Positions 3,562 through 13,954 of a stretch of 64,000 nucleotides of DNA are shown piece by piece. Position numbers and translations under genes: made by a program. The stretch's first letter is position 1. Each line of letters begins with the position of its first letter. Source of the stretch: Nitrospinaceae bacterium (GTDB taxonomy: Bacteria > Nitrospinota > Nitrospinia > Nitrospinales > Nitrospinaceae); assembly GCA_965237905.1 (NCBI GenBank), contig OZ250172.1, positions 2,656,001 through 2,720,000 on the forward strand, read 5' to 3'. The notes below the pieces were generated by a model. The model was not told the DNA's origin and searched no databases. It was given only the letters and a program-made list of their open reading frames with translations.

Positions 3562-3838
3562 TATGAATGAGGCTGGGGCGCATTTTTCATGTTAGGAGAA
3601 CCTCCCTAAACCTGAATTCCATATGTTATAGAAAATGGAAGTAATAATCTACTCCGTCTGATACCTTTTCCTGCCCATAATCCCCTACTTAATCATCCTA
3701 GGTTTTAGGTCCGAATCCTACCCTTACTTTTGGACCACTTTGCGGGGGGCAGGTCACAATTGCAAAACCACCTAAATCATGCTAACTCTATGTTTGTAAA
3801 AATATTACATCCAATATCTACATGTATTTTGGTGAAAT

Positions 3839-5119
3839 ATGAGAAGACTTGCTGTCCAAAAACGGGATGATGGATATTCCTCCAACAAAGACTATCAACA
3901 ATTTCACAGTAAGGTATCTCAACGTATAGTCCCGGGAGAAAAGGAAAATCGTATAGTATTTACCACAGAACTACAAAAATTGGATGTAAGTAGTGATTTT
4001 GTAGGATTTGGTGGATTTATTTTAGCAGAAGATCCGATCGTACTAAAACTGACTATCCAGATTGATTCTTATGAAGATTCGAAAGAGTTTCAAATTGGAA
4101 CAATTTGGAACCGAATTGGGATAGCTATACCAGCAACTAAAGATGAACGTGCAACTCTAATTATGGAATGGGAAAATGTTACAAGTATAAATGTATGGGG
4201 TTTTGATTTAGGTTATCTTAACCTTCCTGAAAGTATTAGAAATAAGAAACCGGATATTGATGTTCTTAATGAATCACATTTATGCCCTGAAACTTTTTAT
4301 CTACCAAATCAAAATGCAATAGACTTAGATATAGAGGAATCTTCATCTACCCATTTTTCGATTGTTAACGGGTCAGAGATAATATTAAAGAAATGTTCAT
4401 ATTGTCAAAGAATGTTGCCAGTTAATCCAGAATTGCTTGGATCGCTATCTTTCCATAAACATAACGCAAAATTAACTAAACACCAAAATGAATGTAGATC
4501 ATGTAAGAAATGGCGTATAAATAATAGTTTTAATCCTTTAAGAACCACCGATCAATTACATGAGTCATCTGTCATTACACGTGAGCGTAAGATTTTACTT
4601 AAGGAACCAAAGATTCTACAAGAAATAAAGGATAGAACAGGGGCTGGATTAAAATCTCAAATCTGGAAAAAATTTGGGCGCAAATGTTTTTTCTGTAATG
4701 AACCAATTGAGCTAGATGGATTTCAGCTAGACCACACACGACCACTTTCTTACTTATGGCCAATTGACGAACATGCCACCTGTTTGTGCCCTGAACACAA
4801 CAACCAAAAGAAAGATAAATTTCCTATCGAATTCTACACAGAAGATCAATTAAAATCTTTATCAGAAATAACTGGACTAAGTTATGAAGAGTTAACAATT
4901 AAAGATGTGAACCAAAAAGAATTAGATCGAATCATTTCTAATATATCTACTTTTGCAAAAGAATGGGACCCACGTACTTTTGCAGCAATTGCAAGAAAAA
5001 TAAAAGAGTTGAGAAAAAATACAGATCTCTTTATAATTTTAAATGAAGCTGACGAAGAGACATATACTGAATTAGTACAACAACTGGAAGACCGTCCAGA
5101 TCCTGTCGTAAATGAATAG
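3839..5119 (+). CDS. Zn-finger HNH endonuclease, probable restriction endonuclease
   Basis: CFFC..LDHTRP..CLCPEHNNQK HNH/Zn core, plus additional CSYC and CRSC pairs; convergent with the MTase gene. Confidence 0.8.
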   Translation: MRRLAVQKRDDGYSSNKDYQQFHSKVSQRIVPGEKENRIVFTTELQKLDVSSDFVGFGGFILAEDPIVLKLTIQIDSYEDSKEFQIGTIWNRIGIAIPATKDERATLIMEWENVTSINVWGFDLGYLNLPESIRNKKPDIDVLNESHLCPETFYLPNQNAIDLDIEESSSTHFSIVNGSEIILKKCSYCQRMLPVNPELLGSLSFHKHNAKLTKHQNECRSCKKWRINNSFNPLRTTDQLHESSVITRERKILLKEPKILQEIKDRTGAGLKSQIWKKFGRKCFFCNEPIELDGFQLDHTRPLSYLWPIDEHATCLCPEHNNQKKDKFPIEFYTEDQLKSLSEITGLSYEELTIKDVNQKELDRIISNISTFAKEWDPRTFAAIARKIKELRKNTDLFIILNEADEETYTELVQQLEDRPDPVVNE

Positions 5120-5124
5120 GTTTA

Positions 5125-7851
5125 TTATTTTGACGGTTTAAAAAATAATAGTGAATGTGTCGTCGTTAATCCTTTATCCTTTATCCCATGTTTAGCAACT
5201 GTCTGCACATTTTCAATCACTTCACCTTCTAGGGTGAAATATTCAAGAGCTATTGCTTTTAATTCATTAACCATGTCTTTTCTACCTCCGCCACCGAGGT
5301 GAAGAATTAGCAATCCATTCTTTTTTATCATACTCTTGCATAGTGAGAAGAATTCCCTATAAACAGAAATATTCTTTATTTGCTGCCTTTCCAAAAACTC
5401 TAAACTATCTTCTTTAAAATTGCTTTCACTCCAGCCACAAAACCAAAGTCTTAACCAATTAGGACGATCAAACCTCATACCATAAAATGGCGGTGATGTT
5501 ATTATTGCATCAAATTTATGATTGATATGGTTTTTTATATCTCTAAAGTCACCATGAATCCCTAACCCTTTTTGAAATTCTTTTGACAAGGGTTTTGATA
5601 AAGCTCTCTCGGCTCGTTCATATATTTTTTTGTATACATCTTTATATACTTTTGGACCCGAAGGAGAGAAGGGTGTTATAGGGTGTGATGTACATGATAG
5701 CGCATACGGTCTATTGCCATGTAAAACATGCAACAACGAGGCCCAAACAAAATTCTCGGAATCTGACCTTTGATCTAATTTCTTTTTAAGAAAGATCTTT
5801 CTAAGTTTTAGGATCTCCTTTAGTGTTTTTTTGTGGTAATAATCCTTAACCGATGAATTTAAACCAAATTCTGCAAAATTAAAATCATTTTTAGTAAGGT
5901 TGACTTTTGATGCTTCCTTTTGGAGTTTTTGAATGGATTTTCTAACGTTCGACAGAAATGGTGGACGTAACTTTGCCCGTCCTATTAAAGCCGCAAATGG
6001 ACTTTTATCATTGGTGACAACATTTACACCTTGCATAGCCCCCTCAAAAGGTATTGTTCCAACACCTCCTAGGGGATCTAAAAGACTTCCTCCTTTCGGG
6101 ACGAAATACTTAACAAGCCAATGAGACATTGATGGTTTTAGTTTGCCTTGATATGAACAAAGAGAATGTAGAGGATGACCCCAAGTTTTTTTTGAGTATG
6201 GTTGATTCTTGTAAGGTAATTCTCGCTGAAATTGCTTAATTCTTCCCCCTAAAGAGTCACATTTTTTGCTTAATGCTTTTATATGTCTTACGTTCTTGGG
6301 CTTCTCAAAGATTATTTCTGCTTGAACAAGCTCACTTTTATCCCGAGACATTCTTTTTGCTAATATATGTTCGTTTTTTACATTAAAACCAGCTTCTCTA
6401 GCAACATCAATAAGTAGCTTATTTGTAGGAACATGTACACCATAAAACTTAGAGTCTCCTATGTCTAAAACGAAATCACCGCCGGGTTTCATACTGTTAA
6501 AGACACCTTTAAATACTTCATACATATCAGAGAAATAATGACGAGCCATTGTGGGAATTCGTTTGTCTTTTGATTCTAAATCTAGTTGTTTTGCTATCTT
6601 TTCAACTTTTTTAAAATCAAAATAAGATTCTTTTTTCGAGACATCATTTATGCCTCCAGTCACAGTTAAATTTCGGTATCCCCTAAGTTCTTTTTCAGAT
6701 TTAATAAAACCTAAAAGCCAAAGCTCAATTTTTGTATTTCTAAAGTAATTTGTACCGTTCAAATAGGGTGGTGATGTCAGAACTAGATCAAAAGCATTTC
6801 TATACTCATCCGGAATTGATTTAGAGTCTGAGGACACTTTTTTTGTATAAGCTATATTCGTTGGTGAGGATTTAACATCTTGTACCATCCTTTTTACACT
6901 ATCGGATATTAAGCCTGAAACATTGACAACTCTATTTTTGTATTCATCTGGTCTTCTGCGACGTAAGTCAGCTCGTCTAGTCATGTTTGAACATGCAACT
7001 GCATTAGATGTACATGCCAGCATTAATATATTACAAGCATGTTGGTAACCGTCTGATATATCCTCCGCAATGCTTAATGCAGCAAGTAACTCTCGAATGT
7101 GCTTATCTTCAAAATAGTCTCTTTTAGGGAATGCCTCATAATATTGTTCAAGCGATACCCTTTTTCTTGCCTTTACCAAATTATTTTTATCTATAACCTT
7201 TAAATATTCAGTTGCTATCGAATTAAACTTATTCCAATTCTTTTTTGCCCATCTTACAGATAAAATCTTTGTCTCAGCAACAAAGGACATAAACGGATTT
7301 AGCTCAGAGTAAAATGATTGAATCCCTAACATTGAAGCAGCTAGTTGTACGGTTCCTGATCCACCAAAAGGATCATATATGGTTTGGGGTCTAAGGCGGT
7401 TTCTAAGAATACTGTCTCTTGCATATGTTGCGGAGAATCCTTCTACATACGGGTACCACCCATATATACCTTGTCTTAAACTATCTTGGAATGTCAAACC
7501 AACTGATGTTTCACCTTCGTTTGTGATTTGCATATCAACAGTTCCAAAATCGAAAGACATTTGACCATTTCCATTTTTGCGTCCGTTGTTAAATCCTTTT
7601 TTTAATATAGAGACACAAATATTACTAAGACTTCTACTTTCCTCATGAGCCTTTGCTTCTAAATCTTCAACAATTGGATCGCCTAAAGCTAATCGAAAAT
7701 CACGACTATTAAGTCCTCTAAGATATGTAATAAATTCTTTGGTTATCCCATCTCTAGGCTTAGCCGGTAAGCTAATGTTGACCCTAGCGGATTTGCCAAT
7801 ACGAACACGTTCCTTAGGGAAATAAATGGTTTTGAATATATATTCTGGCAT
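5125..7851 (-). CDS. Fused double DNA amino-methyltransferase (two m4C-type domains) with putative N-terminal RHH domain
   Basis: Domain 1 DPFGGSGT...TSPPY; domain 2 DPLGGVGT...TSPPF; first ATG at 7851. Confidence 0.85.
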   Translation of the reverse strand: MPEYIFKTIYFPKERVRIGKSARVNISLPAKPRDGITKEFITYLRGLNSRDFRLALGDPIVEDLEAKAHEESRSLSNICVSILKKGFNNGRKNGNGQMSFDFGTVDMQITNEGETSVGLTFQDSLRQGIYGWYPYVEGFSATYARDSILRNRLRPQTIYDPFGGSGTVQLAASMLGIQSFYSELNPFMSFVAETKILSVRWAKKNWNKFNSIATEYLKVIDKNNLVKARKRVSLEQYYEAFPKRDYFEDKHIRELLAALSIAEDISDGYQHACNILMLACTSNAVACSNMTRRADLRRRRPDEYKNRVVNVSGLISDSVKRMVQDVKSSPTNIAYTKKVSSDSKSIPDEYRNAFDLVLTSPPYLNGTNYFRNTKIELWLLGFIKSEKELRGYRNLTVTGGINDVSKKESYFDFKKVEKIAKQLDLESKDKRIPTMARHYFSDMYEVFKGVFNSMKPGGDFVLDIGDSKFYGVHVPTNKLLIDVAREAGFNVKNEHILAKRMSRDKSELVQAEIIFEKPKNVRHIKALSKKCDSLGGRIKQFQRELPYKNQPYSKKTWGHPLHSLCSYQGKLKPSMSHWLVKYFVPKGGSLLDPLGGVGTIPFEGAMQGVNVVTNDKSPFAALIGRAKLRPPFLSNVRKSIQKLQKEASKVNLTKNDFNFAEFGLNSSVKDYYHKKTLKEILKLRKIFLKKKLDQRSDSENFVWASLLHVLHGNRPYALSCTSHPITPFSPSGPKVYKDVYKKIYERAERALSKPLSKEFQKGLGIHGDFRDIKNHINHKFDAIITSPPFYGMRFDRPNWLRLWFCGWSESNFKEDSLEFLERQQIKNISVYREFFSLCKSMIKKNGLLILHLGGGGRKDMVNELKAIALEYFTLEGEVIENVQTVAKHGIKDKGLTTTHSLLFFKPSK

Positions 7852-8049
7852 TAGGAAGTTCTCTATCACAATTATTGTGATATTATAAATTATCAACTTC
7901 AAATTCACGACAGAAATTTACGAAACCCTCTTAATTCATGAAATTTGTGTCTGTCAATAAATATGGGTTTGGCGGCCTCCGGGGCCTAAAAGCATTAAGT
8001 CCAGCCAATTTCCCCGTCTAAAACCCTGTTATCACCTTTTAAAAATGAA

Positions 8050-8083: not shown

Positions 8084-8112
8084 AACTTATTGCCCCTAAA
8101 GGGCTTATTTGA

Positions 8113-8156
8113 TGGGCCATCACGGGATCGAACCGTGGACCTACTAGTTAAGAGCT
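8113..8156 (-). other. 3' half of a tRNA-Lys(CTT) gene, att-site-like remnant
   Basis: Minus strand AGCTCTTAACTAGTAGGTCCACGGTTCGATCCCGTGATGGCCCA: anticodon loop CT-CTT-AA, T-arm CACGG-TTCGATC-CCGTG, acceptor 3' strand; no D-arm or 5' acceptor strand upstream. Confidence 0.8.
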
Positions 8157-8245: not shown

Positions 8246-9652
8246 TTACGCCAAAAGTGATTTTGCTTCTTCAGATTTTTGTTTTAGGTAATTATGTAGT
8301 TCCTTCAAGAGTTTCAACTCGTTTCCATCAGATTGCTCTATCAATTCTTCTGTTTGATTGATGGCTTGAGGTAAGGTCAACCAGGGAACTTTTCCATCAG
8401 CCTCCAAAACCCTTCTAGCGAAAGACTTATCAAGTTTTAGACGATTATTTTTTGATAAAACTTCTGGTTTTTCAGAATAAATTAAACGCATACCAAGTTT
8501 TTTTAGTCTTTTGTCTTTTATCTTGCTTAGATGGTATTCTCGATCGGCCCAATCAATTTTATGAAAAGTTTCCATTTGATCCTGATCTTCCCAAGAAGGG
8601 AAGCTATCATAAATTTGATCTTCAACATGGTCGGAGGGTTCTTTTATTTTACGAGTACCCATAAATATTGAAATTAACTTATCTTTTAATTTTGTGTTTC
8701 CATGTAAATATTTGGCCCTACGTTCTAATTCTTTCCTATCTAACTCATAGGACTTCATGTAATCAGGCGCATCATCCAAAGATAAAATTATTGGAGAAGA
8801 GTTTGTCTTTAGTATTCGAATAGGTTTTGGTTGAGAAAGTATTTTTTCCTCTAATTCATCTTCGCTCAAATCCTCAAGATCCTTCGGGTCTACTGATAGA
8901 TTAAAAACTAGCATATCTGTATTCATAGAAGGATTCAAACCTATCCCCGTTACAACCCAAGAGATTCCTTTCCTCCGAAAGAACTCTGAAAAAATAAACA
9001 GAGATTCTTCTTTAATGAATTCAATCACAGCAGCTTTATTTCCGAATTGCATAAAATTTGACCAAATATTTGGGGCGTGCTCAGAGGCTAATCTGCATAA
9101 GTGAAGGGTGGCTTCAGCATCCGCCATCGCCTCATGTGCTCCTTCATGACTAAAACCGTTTGCAGGGGCTAGTTGATCTAGTTTGAAAATACTATTCCCT
9201 TTTGCATCAGTTGGGATATTTAGAGCGTTAAGGGAAAAAATACTTATCGCTTGAACTATTTTCATACTATCAGAACGACAATTATTGTTTGTGTTTGTGA
9301 GATATGGTGGATGCAGTGTTTTGTATAAAGCTTGACGCAATAGATGTTCATCAAAACCCAAAGAATTATGGCCAATAAAAACAGATGGCGACCAAGCCAT
9401 AAGCTTTTCGCGAATAGACAGTAACATTTCGTAATGAGAAGGCAAAGATGGATCGGTAAATTGCTGAACCGAAATTTTTGTAACTTTAATTGCACCAGGA
9501 GACGGTACTACATAGGGAAGCAAGCGTGAGCGGCACTCAAATCTATCTATCTCATTAAGATCTGCATCAGTCTTGATTGCGGCAAATTGTAAGATTTGGT
9601 CAAACGAAGTATTTGTTCCAGTAGTTTCAGTATCGTAGAAAACAAAGGCCAT
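8246..9652 (-). CDS. sbcB: Exonuclease I (SbcB)-like DEDDh 3'-5' ssDNA exonuclease
   Basis: YDTETTG (ExoI), HNSLGFD (ExoII), AHEAMAD (ExoIII), C-terminal VEDQIYDSF and DKRL motifs; ~468 aa; GGAGG RBS. Confidence 0.85.
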   Translation of the reverse strand: MAFVFYDTETTGTNTSFDQILQFAAIKTDADLNEIDRFECRSRLLPYVVPSPGAIKVTKISVQQFTDPSLPSHYEMLLSIREKLMAWSPSVFIGHNSLGFDEHLLRQALYKTLHPPYLTNTNNNCRSDSMKIVQAISIFSLNALNIPTDAKGNSIFKLDQLAPANGFSHEGAHEAMADAEATLHLCRLASEHAPNIWSNFMQFGNKAAVIEFIKEESLFIFSEFFRRKGISWVVTGIGLNPSMNTDMLVFNLSVDPKDLEDLSEDELEEKILSQPKPIRILKTNSSPIILSLDDAPDYMKSYELDRKELERRAKYLHGNTKLKDKLISIFMGTRKIKEPSDHVEDQIYDSFPSWEDQDQMETFHKIDWADREYHLSKIKDKRLKKLGMRLIYSEKPEVLSKNNRLKLDKSFARRVLEADGKVPWLTLPQAINQTEELIEQSDGNELKLLKELHNYLKQKSEEAKSLLA

Positions 9653-9672
9653 AAAAACCTCCAAAAGATACT

Positions 9673-10188
9673 TTAACCTAATAAATTTCCCAAACGAAAG
9701 CGCATAGCCGATTTGCTAACCTTAAATTGGATAGCAAGTTTGTTTAATTCTTCATCCTTATCAATATCGATACCTTTTCCGCCAAGAGCTTCTTCAATAA
9801 ATTTTTTAGGCATTAGAAGTTCTGCGGCAAAAGAATTAGCTTGTATCTCTATTCCATTTATTCCCGCAGAAGATATTGAATCTCGCATAAGCATAGGAAA
9901 TTCTTTATCAACATGTATTCCGTCGGAAATTTCATTTTTGTGAAAAATCAAATGACCAATTTCATGTGAAATTGTAAATCTTTGCCTATTAGGGTGATGT
10001 AATGAATTTACTCCTATAATTGGGCAACCATTTTTAAAGAAAATCATTCCTGAAATTTCATCGTCTAGAGGAGAATATCGCAGTTTTGCTCCTAGCTTTT
10101 TTGCAATGCGATCAACAGGAACAGGACCATAAACCACATTATATTCATCTAACAATTGTTTAGCACGATTTTCGAATTTTGTGGCCAT
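9673..10188 (-). CDS. ImmA/IrrE-family Zn metallopeptidase (CapP-like)
   Basis: QRFTISHEIGH (HExxH), EIQANSFAAELLMP; follows the XRE gene, divergent from CBASS. Confidence 0.88.
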   Translation of the reverse strand: MATKFENRAKQLLDEYNVVYGPVPVDRIAKKLGAKLRYSPLDDEISGMIFFKNGCPIIGVNSLHHPNRQRFTISHEIGHLIFHKNEISDGIHVDKEFPMLMRDSISSAGINGIEIQANSFAAELLMPKKFIEEALGGKGIDIDKDEELNKLAIQFKVSKSAMRFRLGNLLG

Positions 10189-10226
10189 ATTACTCTCCTT
10201 ATACATGCTTAAGACTCAATTGCACC

Positions 10227-10556
10227 TTAAGCATCTCTAATAATTTTAAATATTGCCTGCTTCTGTTCTTCTGTTAAATCTTCGTCCTTATGCAATCGAA
10301 AGGAAGACACTGAGGATTTTGATGGTGTAAATTTTTCTATGGGGGGTAAGAGCTTGTCCAATGAATCAAGATTTAACACTTGAGCAATGCAATAAAGGCG
10401 GTGGGTCAATACATGCTGTCTCCCGGCTTCAATATTTGCTAAAGATGCCCGAGAAATTCCAATTTGATCAGCAAGTTGACCTTGTGTAATGTCCTCACTT
10501 TTACGAATTTTTTTTATTTTTTGTCCAACGAGGAGTGAAAATTTGTCAGGTTCCAT
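10227..10556 (-). CDS. XRE-family HTH repressor (CapH-like)
   Basis: IRKSEDITQGQLADQIGISRASLANIEAGRQ; divergent from the CBASS operon. Confidence 0.88.
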   Translation of the reverse strand: MEPDKFSLLVGQKIKKIRKSEDITQGQLADQIGISRASLANIEAGRQHVLTHRLYCIAQVLNLDSLDKLLPPIEKFTPSKSSVSSFRLHKDEDLTEEQKQAIFKIIRDA

Positions 10557-10561
10557 AACTC

Positions 10562-10666
10562 CTTATACTAGTAAACACAGGATATGTCAAGCAAGCAAAC
10601 AATTTGTTTGGGATACAAACATATATATTTTTTTTATATTGACATCTGGCAGCAGATTGATATGCT
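10562..10666. promoter_or_regulatory. Divergent promoter region with candidate operator palindrome CAAACAA-T-TTGTTTG (10596-10610)
   Basis: Rightward TTGACA 10639-10644 with TGnTATGCT (-10 at 10661-10666); leftward TTGACA 10590-10585 with TATAAG after 17 bp; palindrome lies between them. Confidence 0.55.
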
Positions 10667-10753
10667 CACAGATAAGTAATGGCACCACGTTTCTCGGAAT
10701 CAGCTATTTATCCTGGTTGATCCGACCTGAATCCAAAATAGGAGGCAATAATC

Positions 10754-11767
10754 TTGAAGGAAGGGGTAGAAGAAACTGGACATCCGAAGCGGCGTATCCT
10801 ATGCATCGATGGGGGCGGCATCCTCGGTACATTCCCTGCGGCCTTTTTGGCCGAACTGGAGCAGCATCTCGAACACCCGATCGGTTCGTACTTCGACCTG
10901 ATTGCGGGAACATCTACAGGCGGCATCCTCGGGATTGCCCTGTCCTTGGGTCTTCCCGCATCCGAAATTCTTGACCTTTACGAAAAACGAGGTCCAGAGA
11001 TTTTCGGCCAGGATCATGGTGCGCTTATAAGTTTGATTTTAAGGAAAATTCGCGGTTTCCGGCAGCTATACAGACGCAAATATGATTCCGATGCGCTTCG
11101 TTCCGTTCTAAAGGAAGTTTTGGGTACCAGGCGTATTGGTGAAGCTCGGACCCGACTGGTTGTTCCGGCTTGGAACCCAGTGGCTCAATCAGTTTACATT
11201 TATAAGACCGCACATCACCATCGCCTGAAAACAGATTACCGATCGTTCGCCGTCGATGCTGCACTCGCCACGTCTGCAGCGCCGACCTATTTCCAGCATC
11301 ACATCACGCAAAACGATGTTGGATTGCTTGACGGGGGAATCTGGGCGAATAACCCGATCGCCATAGCCGTAGTGGAGGCCATTGCCGTTTTGGGTTGGCC
11401 TCGGGAATCATTGCAAATTTTAAGCCTTAGCTGTTTGGATGAAGCCTACTCAATCCCGAAATGGGTGGGAGTTGGCACACTCGGATTGAAAATCCGCAAT
11501 CTATTTATGGACGGCCAGTCGAAAGGCGCTATGGGCATCGCCAAGCTACTCACAGGCCATGAACATGAACGCAAAGCCATTTACCGGATCAGCCACACAA
11601 TCCCATATAACGCCTTCAAGATGGATGACACGCGTGTGATTCAGGACCTGAAAGGTCTCGGGCATACCATGGCTCGTGATAGGAACCCTGTTCTGGAACC
11701 CGTATTTTTTGACAAACCGGCGAAAGAGTTCACGCCGATTTACCAACTTAATGAGGAATCGCAATGA
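10754..11767 (+). CDS. capV: CBASS patatin-like phospholipase effector (CapV-like)
   Basis: DGGGILG, GTSTG nucleophile elbow, DGG; overlaps the CD-NTase start (ATGA); GGAGG before the TTG start. Confidence 0.88.
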   Translation: MKEGVEETGHPKRRILCIDGGGILGTFPAAFLAELEQHLEHPIGSYFDLIAGTSTGGILGIALSLGLPASEILDLYEKRGPEIFGQDHGALISLILRKIRGFRQLYRRKYDSDALRSVLKEVLGTRRIGEARTRLVVPAWNPVAQSVYIYKTAHHHRLKTDYRSFAVDAALATSAAPTYFQHHITQNDVGLLDGGIWANNPIAIAVVEAIAVLGWPRESLQILSLSCLDEAYSIPKWVGVGTLGLKIRNLFMDGQSKGAMGIAKLLTGHEHERKAIYRISHTIPYNAFKMDDTRVIQDLKGLGHTMARDRNPVLEPVFFDKPAKEFTPIYQLNEESQ

Positions 11768-12963
11768 CAATTGACACAGAAAAATACAACAGATTTTTGG
11801 ATAGCGTTGCGGAAGAAATTGATATACCGCCGAGCAAATATCAGGATGCGGTTGAGCGCTACCAGTCCGTCGGAAAGTGGCTGGAGGCAGGTGAGTACTT
11901 AGAATCTTCCGGCAAGCCAAGCATTTACCCGCAAGGCTCTTTTCGCCTGGGAACGGTGGCCAGGCCTATAAGGGGCGGCGTCGAGGCAAGCTATGACATT
12001 GATCTTGTATGTGAGTTGCCGATCGAAAAAAAACGGACCGACCCGTATTCGATCAAGACTATGGTCGGTGATCGCTTACGCGAGCACGGCACATATCGCA
12101 AATTGCTTGACAAGGAAGGTAAGCGATGCTGGACGCTCGAATACGCCGAAGAGGATGAGGTTGGCTTTCATCTGGACGTTCTGCCATCCGTCCCGGATCA
12201 AAAGGGTCTTCTAGATACCTCTATTGCCATCACCAATAAACAAGCAGGAGTCTACGATTGGTCTTCGAGCGATCCGAATGGCTTTGGGCTCTGGTTTGAT
12301 CGCCAGAATCGGGCGGCGTTCGAGGTCGCCCTGATCGAACAAAAGCGATCCATTCAGGAGCGGATGCCCAATCTTTATGGGAAAGTTGACGACGTTCCAG
12401 ACCAACTCGTCCGCACGCCCCTCCAAAGGTCGATTCAGCTCATGAAACGTCACCGTGATGTGAAGTTTAATGACGCACAGTATAATGGTTACGCGCCGAT
12501 CTCGATCATCATTACGACCTTGGCTGCGCAGTTTTATCAGGATGAGCCGGATACCTTTTCGGCGCTGACCAGAATTATCGACCAACTCCATGAGCATGCG
12601 GTTCTTGTTGAAAATGGGACCGTGAACAAAGCTCTCGCGCCCTTCAGTCCTATTAAACGCACGTCTGACGGAAAGTGGTACATAGGCAATCCGGTCAATT
12701 CAGATGAGAATTTCGCCGACCGCTGGCACGAGGATAAACATGCACGTGCGAGGGCCTTTTTCTCTTGGGTGGCTGCCTTAAAGGAGGACCTCATAAACAT
12801 TTTGGCTGAAACACGTCCTGATGTCATGCGCAAACGACTTACCGCTGTGCTTGGTGCGGCTGTTGTGTCTGGTCATCTCGACCTGATCTCACCAGCCCAG
12901 GCCGCCGTGGTCAGTGCCCCAAGTATTCATATCTCGGGAGCAGCTAAACCCTGGAGGGCATGA
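11764..12963 (+). CDS. CBASS CD-NTase (cGAS/DncV-like nucleotidyltransferase)
   Basis: QGSFRLGT..P...YDIDL, HLDVLP, QLMKRHRD, PISIIITTL, NPVNSDENFADRW; C-terminus KPWRA. Confidence 0.92.
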   Translation: MTIDTEKYNRFLDSVAEEIDIPPSKYQDAVERYQSVGKWLEAGEYLESSGKPSIYPQGSFRLGTVARPIRGGVEASYDIDLVCELPIEKKRTDPYSIKTMVGDRLREHGTYRKLLDKEGKRCWTLEYAEEDEVGFHLDVLPSVPDQKGLLDTSIAITNKQAGVYDWSSSDPNGFGLWFDRQNRAAFEVALIEQKRSIQERMPNLYGKVDDVPDQLVRTPLQRSIQLMKRHRDVKFNDAQYNGYAPISIIITTLAAQFYQDEPDTFSALTRIIDQLHEHAVLVENGTVNKALAPFSPIKRTSDGKWYIGNPVNSDENFADRWHEDKHARARAFFSWVAALKEDLINILAETRPDVMRKRLTAVLGAAVVSGHLDLISPAQAAVVSAPSIHISGAAKPWRA

Positions 12964-13713
12964 GTGAAGGAAGAACTCTCCGCCCAAATCGCCGAGCTAC
13001 AGACGGTTCATACGGGTCTGACAAAAATCGCGGAGAAGGATAACGAAACTGTCGTTTCCGGACCGTTGCCGTTCAAGGCATCGGCTGACGGGCTTAGCCC
13101 AATTACCGAATGCTTTGAGATAGAATTAATCATCCCCAATAAATACCCGAAGATCCTGCCGCGTGTTAGGGAAACCGGTGGGAAAGTCGACGGCGATTAT
13201 GACCACCTCTATAAGGATGGAACGCTCTGTCTAGCTGTCCCGATCGAGGAGCGCAGGAGATTTGGAGAACAACCCACCCTTCTAGGTTTTATAAACAAAC
13301 TGGTAATTCCCTATTTTTTTGGCTACTACTACTGGGAAAAAAACGGCAAATATCCTTTCGACGAGCAAGCCCATGGCCCCGATGGGATTGTCCGGCATTA
13401 TATGGATTCCCTCCATCTACCGGATGAAATCTCAGCTCTGGCTGTCGTTTCCTACCTTCTTGAGTATGGCTATCGCGGTCATCATTTATGTCCTTGTGGA
13501 AGCAGCGAAAAGGTTCGAAATTGCCATGGCAAAGCATTACACGACCTACATGAACAGCACAATGAAATCACTTTAAAAAATGATTTCTTGTCGGCGCTGG
13601 ATGTCTGCATCAACAAAGTAAAAGAGGACAAACTTAAAATTCCTGAATCCCTTAAAAGACAGGTTCTTCGAATTTACAATAAGATCAAAAACAAAATCTT
13701 CGATGTTGACTAA
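12964..13713 (+). CDS. Prokaryotic E2 (UBC-like) protein with C-terminal SEC-C Zn motif; CBASS ancillary protein
   Basis: IELIIPNKYPKILPRV...HLYKDGTLCL resembles the UBC active-site region with catalytic Cys; CPCGSSEKVRNCH is SEC-C; abuts the CD-NTase stop. Confidence 0.78.
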   Translation: MKEELSAQIAELQTVHTGLTKIAEKDNETVVSGPLPFKASADGLSPITECFEIELIIPNKYPKILPRVRETGGKVDGDYDHLYKDGTLCLAVPIEERRRFGEQPTLLGFINKLVIPYFFGYYYWEKNGKYPFDEQAHGPDGIVRHYMDSLHLPDEISALAVVSYLLEYGYRGHHLCPCGSSEKVRNCHGKALHDLHEQHNEITLKNDFLSALDVCINKVKEDKLKIPESLKRQVLRIYNKIKNKIFDVD

Positions 13714-13756
13714 CAGAGTTGGGTCTTATAATTAATAATATATAATATAATAATTT

Positions 13757-13954
13757 ATGGCCATCTTCATCCCCCACAGATGCCCGATATGCTTCGAGAG
13801 CGTGACGCTGATACTGCCGCAGCATAAGGGTGGTGCGTTTAAGGGTACAGCGAAGGGGCAGTGTTTAAATTGCATGGATGAGCAGGAACACGATTTAACT
13901 GTCCCCGCCAATAGGAAAGATTTAATCAAAGTCAAAGGACCAGAACGGCAGTAA
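13757..13954 (+). CDS. Small Zn-ribbon-like protein
   Basis: 65 aa with CPIC...CLNC. Confidence 0.45.
   Translation: MAIFIPHRCPICFESVTLILPQHKGGAFKGTAKGQCLNCMDEQEHDLTVPANRKDLIKVKGPERQ

Follow-up and report, generated by a model that had tools for sequence, protein, structure and literature searches.

A recurrent XRE–peptidase–exonuclease I cassette facing interchangeable defence operons: a possible threshold or reset on a repressor-cleavage switch

Why should the controller of a suicidal defence operon include an exonuclease that degrades single-stranded DNA (ssDNA)? The question is raised by a 64,000-nucleotide (nt) stretch of the genome of a Nitrospinaceae bacterium (hereafter the window, to which all coordinates refer), in which genes for an XRE-family helix-turn-helix (HTH) protein, a short M78 metallopeptidase, and an exonuclease I (ExoI, or SbcB) stand opposite an antiphage signalling system based on cyclic oligonucleotides (CBASS). 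The original prediction, made from the sequence, took these three genes for a CapH/CapP-like controller in which a CBASS-regulated ExoI removes the inducing ssDNA. The genes identified with Pfam, NCBIfam, and PADLOC profiles (Table 1) agree with the layout that it described: the cassette genes are co-oriented on the minus strand and divergent from the plus-strand capV, CD-NTase, and E2 matches. The gap between the XRE stop and the peptidase is 20 nt with the first peptidase ATG or 41 nt with the second, which has the better ribosome-binding site, and another 20 nt separate the peptidase stop from the ExoI ATG. The comparisons described here show a conserved three-gene cassette that is portable, in that the defence operons it faces are interchangeable. 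In our judgment, there is an even chance that ExoI serves this cassette in an accessory way, by setting a threshold on a switch worked by repressor cleavage or by resetting it.

The reading starts from recurrence, which had been set beforehand as a test of the linkage. Loci were collected in three scans, whose seeds were ExoI alone (16 loci), the peptidase alignment (best 80 of 95 loci), and the ExoI alignment (best 80 of 428 loci); these samples are biased toward their seeds, and kin among them are not independent. An XRE-peptidase pair was present in front of ExoI in 7 of the 16 loci of the first scan, ExoI directly followed the peptidase in 71/80 loci of the second, and the peptidase directly preceded ExoI in 50/80 loci of the third, with L125 uncounted. 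The linkage is far above chance, and in most loci ExoI takes the third place, ~10–25 nt behind the peptidase. An apparent triple fusion in L125 was rejected as a sequence error, since it differs from close relatives by four single-base indels. According to record titles, cassettes occur in many phyla, namely in Alpha-, Beta-, and Gammaproteobacteria, Verrucomicrobiota, Planctomycetota, Acidobacteriota, Gemmatimonadota, Entotheonella, and a cyanobacterial metagenome-assembled genome, as well as on three annotated plasmids (3/44 matches examined); cultured hosts include Rhizobium, Sphingobium, and Pseudosulfitobacter (plasmids and chromosomes). No peptidase relative was confirmed among 62 pattern matches in viral contigs, and the sole matches in a phage collection were housekeeping-type sbcB at 25–30% identity. 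The cassette is uncommon, because in samples of 201 genomes from the class of a Rhodobacteraceae locus only 3 of 16 short capP matches and 3 of 14 ExoI-family genes belong to one.

The operons that the cassette faces are diverse. For the 93 distinct cassette loci left after duplicate removal, facing operons were typed from 140 of 612 facing-strand open reading frames (ORFs; cluster representatives and near singletons) against Pfam and PADLOC. Ubiquitin-like operons face 52 of the 93 cassettes (Bil, 17; multiple ubiquitin-like domains with ThiF, 22; Bub-like with DUF6527, 11; MBL/E2-E1-JAB, 2), and the remainder comprises CBASS (6), TIR operons (8), other operons (24, including Pycsar, Gabija, restriction-modification (R-M), and DUF2188/DUF3892), and loci without flank (3). 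A reading specific to CBASS was rejected, as CBASS faces just 6/93 cassettes. The window’s own core genes form an E2-only (type II short) CBASS, composed of CD-NTase, effector, and stand-alone E2, with no E1 or JAB gene after E2 in the window. No ExoI was found near the CD-NTase in 12 relatives of the window’s enzyme, and the four closest CBASS relatives (51–67%) sit under other XRE/M78 controllers without ExoI: an XRE protein with a different short, GAF-less peptidase in two of them (L254 and L255), an HTH-peptidase fusion in L256, and an XRE protein with a long CapP-like protein in L257. The proposal that ExoI is a component of the CBASS regulon thus finds no support, and controller and facing operon are exchanged independently. 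The three cassette genes of the window have a guanine-cytosine (GC) content of 34–37%, matching the adjoining R-M pair, while the CBASS genes (45–52%) are near the genome’s 50%.

Some loci depart from the common arrangement. In L103 (8983–13747) and L104, an opposite-strand Thoeris operon (Sir2-SLOG and TIR) is inserted between the XRE-peptidase pair and ExoI, and the XRE protein has an unusual helix together with a different perfect palindrome. In L154 (9001–11346), ExoI is convergent with the peptidase-XRE pair instead of lying behind it. The cassette of L117 (4910–8002) faces an operon of TIR, E2, and SLOG-patatin genes in which no cyclase was seen, a candidate Thoeris/CBASS hybrid.

The three proteins have travelled together. 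FastTree trees were built for the 88 loci in which all three proteins are present; their distances correlated at 0.63 for ExoI and peptidase, 0.69 for ExoI and XRE, and 0.84 for peptidase and XRE, compared with at most 0.18 in 500 shuffles. The ExoI and peptidase trees have 24 supported splits in common, and 7/47 conflict.

The window’s ExoI is intact, as originally predicted: D7, E9, D101, H173, and D178 align to E. coli ExoI, and these five DEDDh residues are kept in 89–91 of 91 cassette copies. Its model matches the E. coli ExoI structures 4js4, 4rg8, and 1fxx (Foldseek TM 0.74–0.76 over ~480 columns), with the full fold of exonuclease, SH3-like, and helical domains present. The suggestion of an island-borne, AT-rich enzyme distinct from the housekeeping one also held, given its GC content, an NCBIfam exodeoxyribonuclease I score of 227 bits, below the housekeeping equivalog cut-off of 260, and the proposed SbcB tree, in which cassette ExoI lies on a long branch from the housekeeping copies L176 and L177. 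It is the only full-length copy in its genome. A search of 60 related genomes from the same order (at least 90% complete in 43 cases) found no SbcB/ExoI, so that a cassette needing ExoI activity in this host order must bring its own copy. Cassette ExoI keeps F203 in 88/91 and R202 in 89/91 copies, compared with 13/36 and 23/36 solo copies, and these residues were lost in several separate solo clades. Position 140 is Arg in housekeeping ExoI and mostly Ala or Glu in cassette ExoI; its E. coli counterpart, Arg148, is presumably a residue of the pocket for the tail of the ssDNA-binding protein SSB.

Solo members of the family adjoin R-M, helicase, Thoeris, and reverse transcriptase (RT) genes. 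The best PADLOC match of the window’s ExoI is RTasSbcB (355 bits), a profile whose origin was not found in the text or supplement of Mestre et al. In L016 (6376–9383), a gene for a 537-amino-acid (aa) RT overlaps the start of a solo ExoI of the cassette-type family, and this arrangement may be what RTasSbcB stands for. How readily DRT10 is activated depends on a threshold set by host SbcB, according to the accessible part of the report (10.64898/2026.04.29.721553). Considered with the RT overlap in L016, this suggests that the ExoI family was recruited to ssDNA-driven defence more than once.

The peptidase, as modelled, is not a CapP, since it has no C-terminal GAF domain. The HExxH motif (81–85) and E120 are invariant (H81, E82, H85, E120) in 99/99 cassette peptidases. 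Residues 6–177 of the model align to residues 6–182 of CapP 7t5t (Z 16.0, root-mean-square deviation (rmsd) 3.1, 153 aligned), and the model aligns to residues 22–177 of PprI 8sln (Z 13.1, rmsd 2.3); the protein ends at residue 177, equivalent to CapP residue 182 and PprI residue 177, i.e., at the GAF boundary. The accessible parts of the respective papers place the CapP GAF domain at 182–288, holding K195, W196, Y264, and W280, four of the five tested ssDNA contacts (10.64898/2026.05.16.725639), and describe GAF-truncated PprI as neither binding ssDNA nor being stimulated by it (PMC10904395). Without a GAF domain, activation by ssDNA is not transferable from CapP to this peptidase, and the original prediction is not supported on this point. 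CapP contacts ssDNA with an Arg located seven residues ahead of HExxH, and the cassette peptidase retains its counterpart, R74. No switch-loop Cys was found between H85 and E120 in the peptidase alignment; this Cys is optional in CapP itself. The place of CapP’s switch loop is occupied by conserved H98, D100, R108, and G115 (clade-specific motifs, residues 98–115), and another clade-specific motif, at residues 67–73, comprises two His before the RQRF motif. The predicted local distance difference test score of the model loop 101–115 is below 50, too uncertain to judge a His/Asp switch.

In the 201-genome sample, the 38 matches to the capP profile divided into 22 long and 16 short ones. ExoI was found within 1.5 kb of none of the 21 fetched long (full-length CapP-type) loci, and the short loci comprised 3 cassettes (one in the seed genome), 2 with XRE without ExoI, and 11 without such an XRE. 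In four of these 11 (L225, L229, L232, L238), another short M78 family lies directly before a Beta-protein (PF14350) gene. ExoI appears to go with one short-peptidase clade only. Within that clade, 9/80 intact repressor-peptidase pairs have no ExoI in cis, by which obligatory ExoI was rejected as a rule. No ExoI match was found in eight of these nine genomes (completeness not given, no positive control), and the ninth has a distant copy. Four of the ExoI-less loci (L031, L041, L046, L050) form one clade across four distant taxa and still face ubiquitin-like operons; the L031 peptidase shows zero departures from the cassette consensus. Peptidase positions K36, D59, P72, and K101 were considered as linked to ExoI loss and rejected, since the differences are inconsistent across losses. 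As nine pairs do without it, including a clade spread over four distant taxa, ExoI seems to be accessory and not essential.

How might the cassette be connected to the operon that it faces? A consensus scan for promoters and terminators gave counts no higher than shuffles and did not list the cassette promoter, so the promoter predictions rely on cross-locus conservation alone (113 loci; L008 dropped as too short). The motif TTG(A/G)C is located 22–40 nt before the modelled XRE start in 107/113 loci, and at 35–36 nt in 87; with a −35 element at this distance of 35–36 nt, the start codon coincides with the predicted start of transcription, which means a leaderless message. An opposite-strand −35 lies at 45–64 nt in 83/107 loci. 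Palindromes with arms of at least 5 bp occur beside the cassette’s −35 in 64% of the 107 loci vs. 9% of shuffles, and a recognition-helix Gly after Arg goes with a TGCGT half-site (17/20 with Gly vs. 1/88 without, most Gly cases being in two clades). Though indirect, these observations are good evidence for binding of the XRE protein to the palindrome in the shared promoter region.

In the proposed mechanism, the XRE protein would bind the palindromes and hold the CBASS promoter off, and the peptidase would cut the XRE protein after DNA damage or infection. Because it has no GAF domain, the peptidase would receive its signal via a partner and not by direct ssDNA binding, probably as ImmA does, via another protein such as RecA on ssDNA; ImmA is activated through RecA or another protein, as stated in the accessible part of Lau et al. 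(10.1101/2022.04.27.489752). ExoI would chew 3′ ssDNA ends, so that brief damage does not fire the suicidal operon, and the switch would close once ssDNA is cleared. ExoI might be either co-induced (reset) or steadily made (threshold). A reset needs derepression of the cassette promoter, as ExoI must be co-induced, and the palindrome position does not tell whether this occurs. Lambda cI activates its own leaderless promoter from a similar operator position. CapS represses its own gene, according to the accessible part of the paper (PMC13373217).

Of the original interpretation, the linkage, the operon-like packing, the congruent trees, and the intact nuclease site stand, but CBASS specificity and CapP-type activation by ssDNA do not. 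A threshold or reset role would still be the most likely reading, in which ExoI likely tunes how easily DNA damage switches the facing operons on. Several points weigh against it. The palindrome does not cover the cassette’s −35 but stops ~5 nt upstream of it, and may leave the cassette’s own promoter unrepressed. The threshold logic fails if the signal of the GAF-less peptidase is not ssDNA. Tree congruence is a sign of joint inheritance and not of joint function, and related loci are not independent. Eleven of the 14 ExoI-family genes of the class sample lie outside the cassette, and the retention of F203 and R202 fits a partner-binding surface, which would favor a different role for ExoI.

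In that different role, ExoI would be the ssDNA-sensing subunit that replaces CapP’s GAF domain: it would load on 3′ ssDNA ends, activate the peptidase by contact, and digest the signal, and a phage protein blocking or diverting ExoI could trip the switch. The peptidase ending exactly at the GAF boundary, the presence of ExoI in 71/80 loci of the short clade as opposed to 0/21 full-length CapP-type loci, the pattern of F203/R202 retention, and the replacement of the housekeeping Arg at position 140, mostly by Ala or Glu, all speak for it. However, the nine pairs without ExoI in cis, eight of them in genomes without an ExoI match (completeness not given), are difficult to accommodate, the more so as the ExoI-less L031 peptidase matches the cassette consensus throughout; other GAF-less peptidases without ExoI face the close CBASS relatives L254 and L255, and the lone apparent fusion is an indel artefact. 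We consider this role unlikely, though still to be reckoned with. If true, it would constitute a third class of ssDNA-responsive immune controller, with exonuclease I in place of a GAF domain; the switch would time itself, and ssDNA-binding proteins or nuclease inhibitors of a phage would set it off.

It is also conceivable, but in our view improbable, that ExoI is a co-regulated second arm that destroys foreign ssDNA as it enters or replicates, or removes products of damage, with no feedback on the switch. The active site is intact, the solo members beside R-M, helicase, Thoeris, and RT genes suggest an enzyme useful without the switch, and loss of ExoI from the cassette is tolerated. Against this stands the constant third place of ExoI, closely behind the peptidase, while the defence operon swaps, since an effector gene should be found more often on the side of the facing operon. 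It seems very unlikely that ExoI is neutral cargo which was inserted once, long ago, and has been passed on with the regulator since: a single origin could explain the gene order and tree congruence, and ExoI was lost repeatedly, but at 40–50% identity and in many phyla the enzyme has retained its catalytic residues and the gene its tight spacing, while neighbouring operons turn over.

The cassette of the window lies in an AT-rich island. The tRNA-Lys fragment (Table 1) sits 90 nt behind the ExoI stop; as its intact counterpart (G000:C1:1025850–1025925) is 1.6 Mb off, with another partial copy 16 kb away from that intact gene, the fragment resembles a scar from another element and may have served as an attachment site. 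Two convergent genes at 3839–7908 probably form a type II R-M system: one encodes a double DNA methyltransferase of 927 aa (PADLOC MTase_II, E 1e-143), the other a 426-aa protein that has Cys/His motifs (HNH-like, by eye) and no family match. The left part of the island (626–2702) contains a serine recombinase fragment, a 203-aa ORF without family match, and a short tyrosine recombinase. On the other side, a 65-aa Cys-rich ORF (13757–13954) has no Pfam match and about seven related stretches in the genome, with 3694–3757 of the window grouped with it. Many different sequences end at 13756 across metagenome contigs, and one such contig joins 3756 to 13757, bypassing the 10-kb block of R-M, cassette, and CBASS genes (the short side being 26 nt only); the junction around 3756/13757 is a possible insertion hot spot.

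Table 1. Features of the cassette, the facing CBASS operon, and their predicted control region in the window.
Feature	Position	Strand	Evidence
ExoI/SbcB-family DEDDh 3′–5′ ssDNA exonuclease, 468 aa, full length	8246–9652	−	Pfam RNase_T and Exonuc_X-T_C; NCBIfam; PADLOC
Short M78 zinc metallopeptidase (peptidase and HTH-like linker), 170–177 aa	9673–10206, likely start 10185	−	Peptidase_M78; PADLOC capP E 1e-33
XRE-family HTH protein, CapH-like, 109 aa; predicted repressor and peptidase substrate	10227–10556	−	Pfam HTH_3; PADLOC capH E 4e-11
CapV-type patatin phospholipase effector	10754–11767	+	NCBIfam CBASS_lipase 232 bits (cut-off 200); PADLOC effector E 2e-97
CD-NTase (cyclic oligonucleotide synthase)	11764–12963	+	PADLOC cyclase E 8e-115; Pfam DncV-like, SMODS
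Stand-alone E2 with C-terminal Cys/His cluster	12964–13713	+	PADLOC E2 E 5e-79; alignment
tRNA-Lys(CTT) gene, 3′ half, 46 nt; putative att-like scar at cassette downstream edge	8109–8154	−	42/46 nt identical to intact tRNA-Lys
Predicted leaderless cassette promoter	10562–10590	−	−35 TTGACA 10590–10585, 17 nt spacer, −10 10567–10562, ATG 5 nt on
Candidate operator	10596–10621		Perfect 7-bp-arm palindrome 10596–10610 and half-site 10616–10621, between two −35 elements
Predicted CBASS operon promoter	10639–10666	+	Best consensus-scan match, 10/12, extended −10

The known controllers of immune operons (CapH/P, CapW, CapK/S) have been described by how they switch on, and how ssDNA signals are thresholded or cleared is an open question. 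The cassette builds a signal-removing enzyme into the controller, beside a peptidase without the known sensing domain. It offers a compact three-gene circuit with a predicted operator, natural ExoI-less variants as controls, and cultured hosts, and it can serve as a marker for finding defence operons, given that 24/93 facing operons fall outside the main named classes. No paper naming ExoI with a CapH/CapP-type XRE-peptidase unit was found in the literature searched, which did not extend to subscription papers. The accessible parts of the preprints on Bil and on Bub and of the CapK paper do not mention “nuclease” or “exonuclease” in the CapH/CapP context, and Bub Table S1 has no such entry. 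Because the published counts, as far as the accessible parts of the Bil and Bub preprints tell, take such pairs as CapH/CapP by annotation (25/162 Bil, 168/544 Bub), the pair is possibly known while the third gene is not.

The cassette resembles several described systems. As an E2-only (type II short) CBASS with a patatin effector, the facing operon is ordinary in its combination of effector, CD-NTase, and stand-alone E2; the controller alone differs from those of its four closest relatives. ImmR and ImmA of the Bacillus element ICEBs1 are the same combination of an XRE repressor and an M78 anti-repressor peptidase, ImmA being small in size; that pair controls element excision, whereas the cassette would control defence operons and carries ExoI. 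The first two domains of PprI/IrrE, the partner of DdrO in Deinococcus, have the same fold as the cassette peptidase, which is a natural equivalent of the GAF-truncated PprI-NM that lost ssDNA binding and stimulation (accessible part of PMC10904395). In DRT10/UG17, an immune response driven by ssDNA has its threshold set by SbcB, which is similar to the role proposed for cassette ExoI, but there the housekeeping SbcB of the host degrades RT-made complementary DNA (accessible part of 10.64898/2026.04.29.721553), whereas the cassette has a dedicated copy in a transcription switch and no RT. For CapH and CapP, the accessible parts of their descriptions (10.1101/2022.04.27.489752; 10.64898/2026.05.16.725639) show the same XRE-then-M78 pair upstream of and opposite to a defence operon, the same range of client operons (CBASS, Bil, Bub, MBL/6a, DUF2188, DUF3892), and the same peptidase and HTH fold. 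The cassette differs from them in its 177-aa peptidase without GAF, compared with ~290 aa in CapP, and in adding ExoI as a third gene, a predicted leaderless promoter, and its own candidate operator family. It is a genuine and conserved variant of the CapH/CapP kind, apparently not described before, with a GAF-less peptidase, a dedicated ExoI, and a putative operator family of its own.

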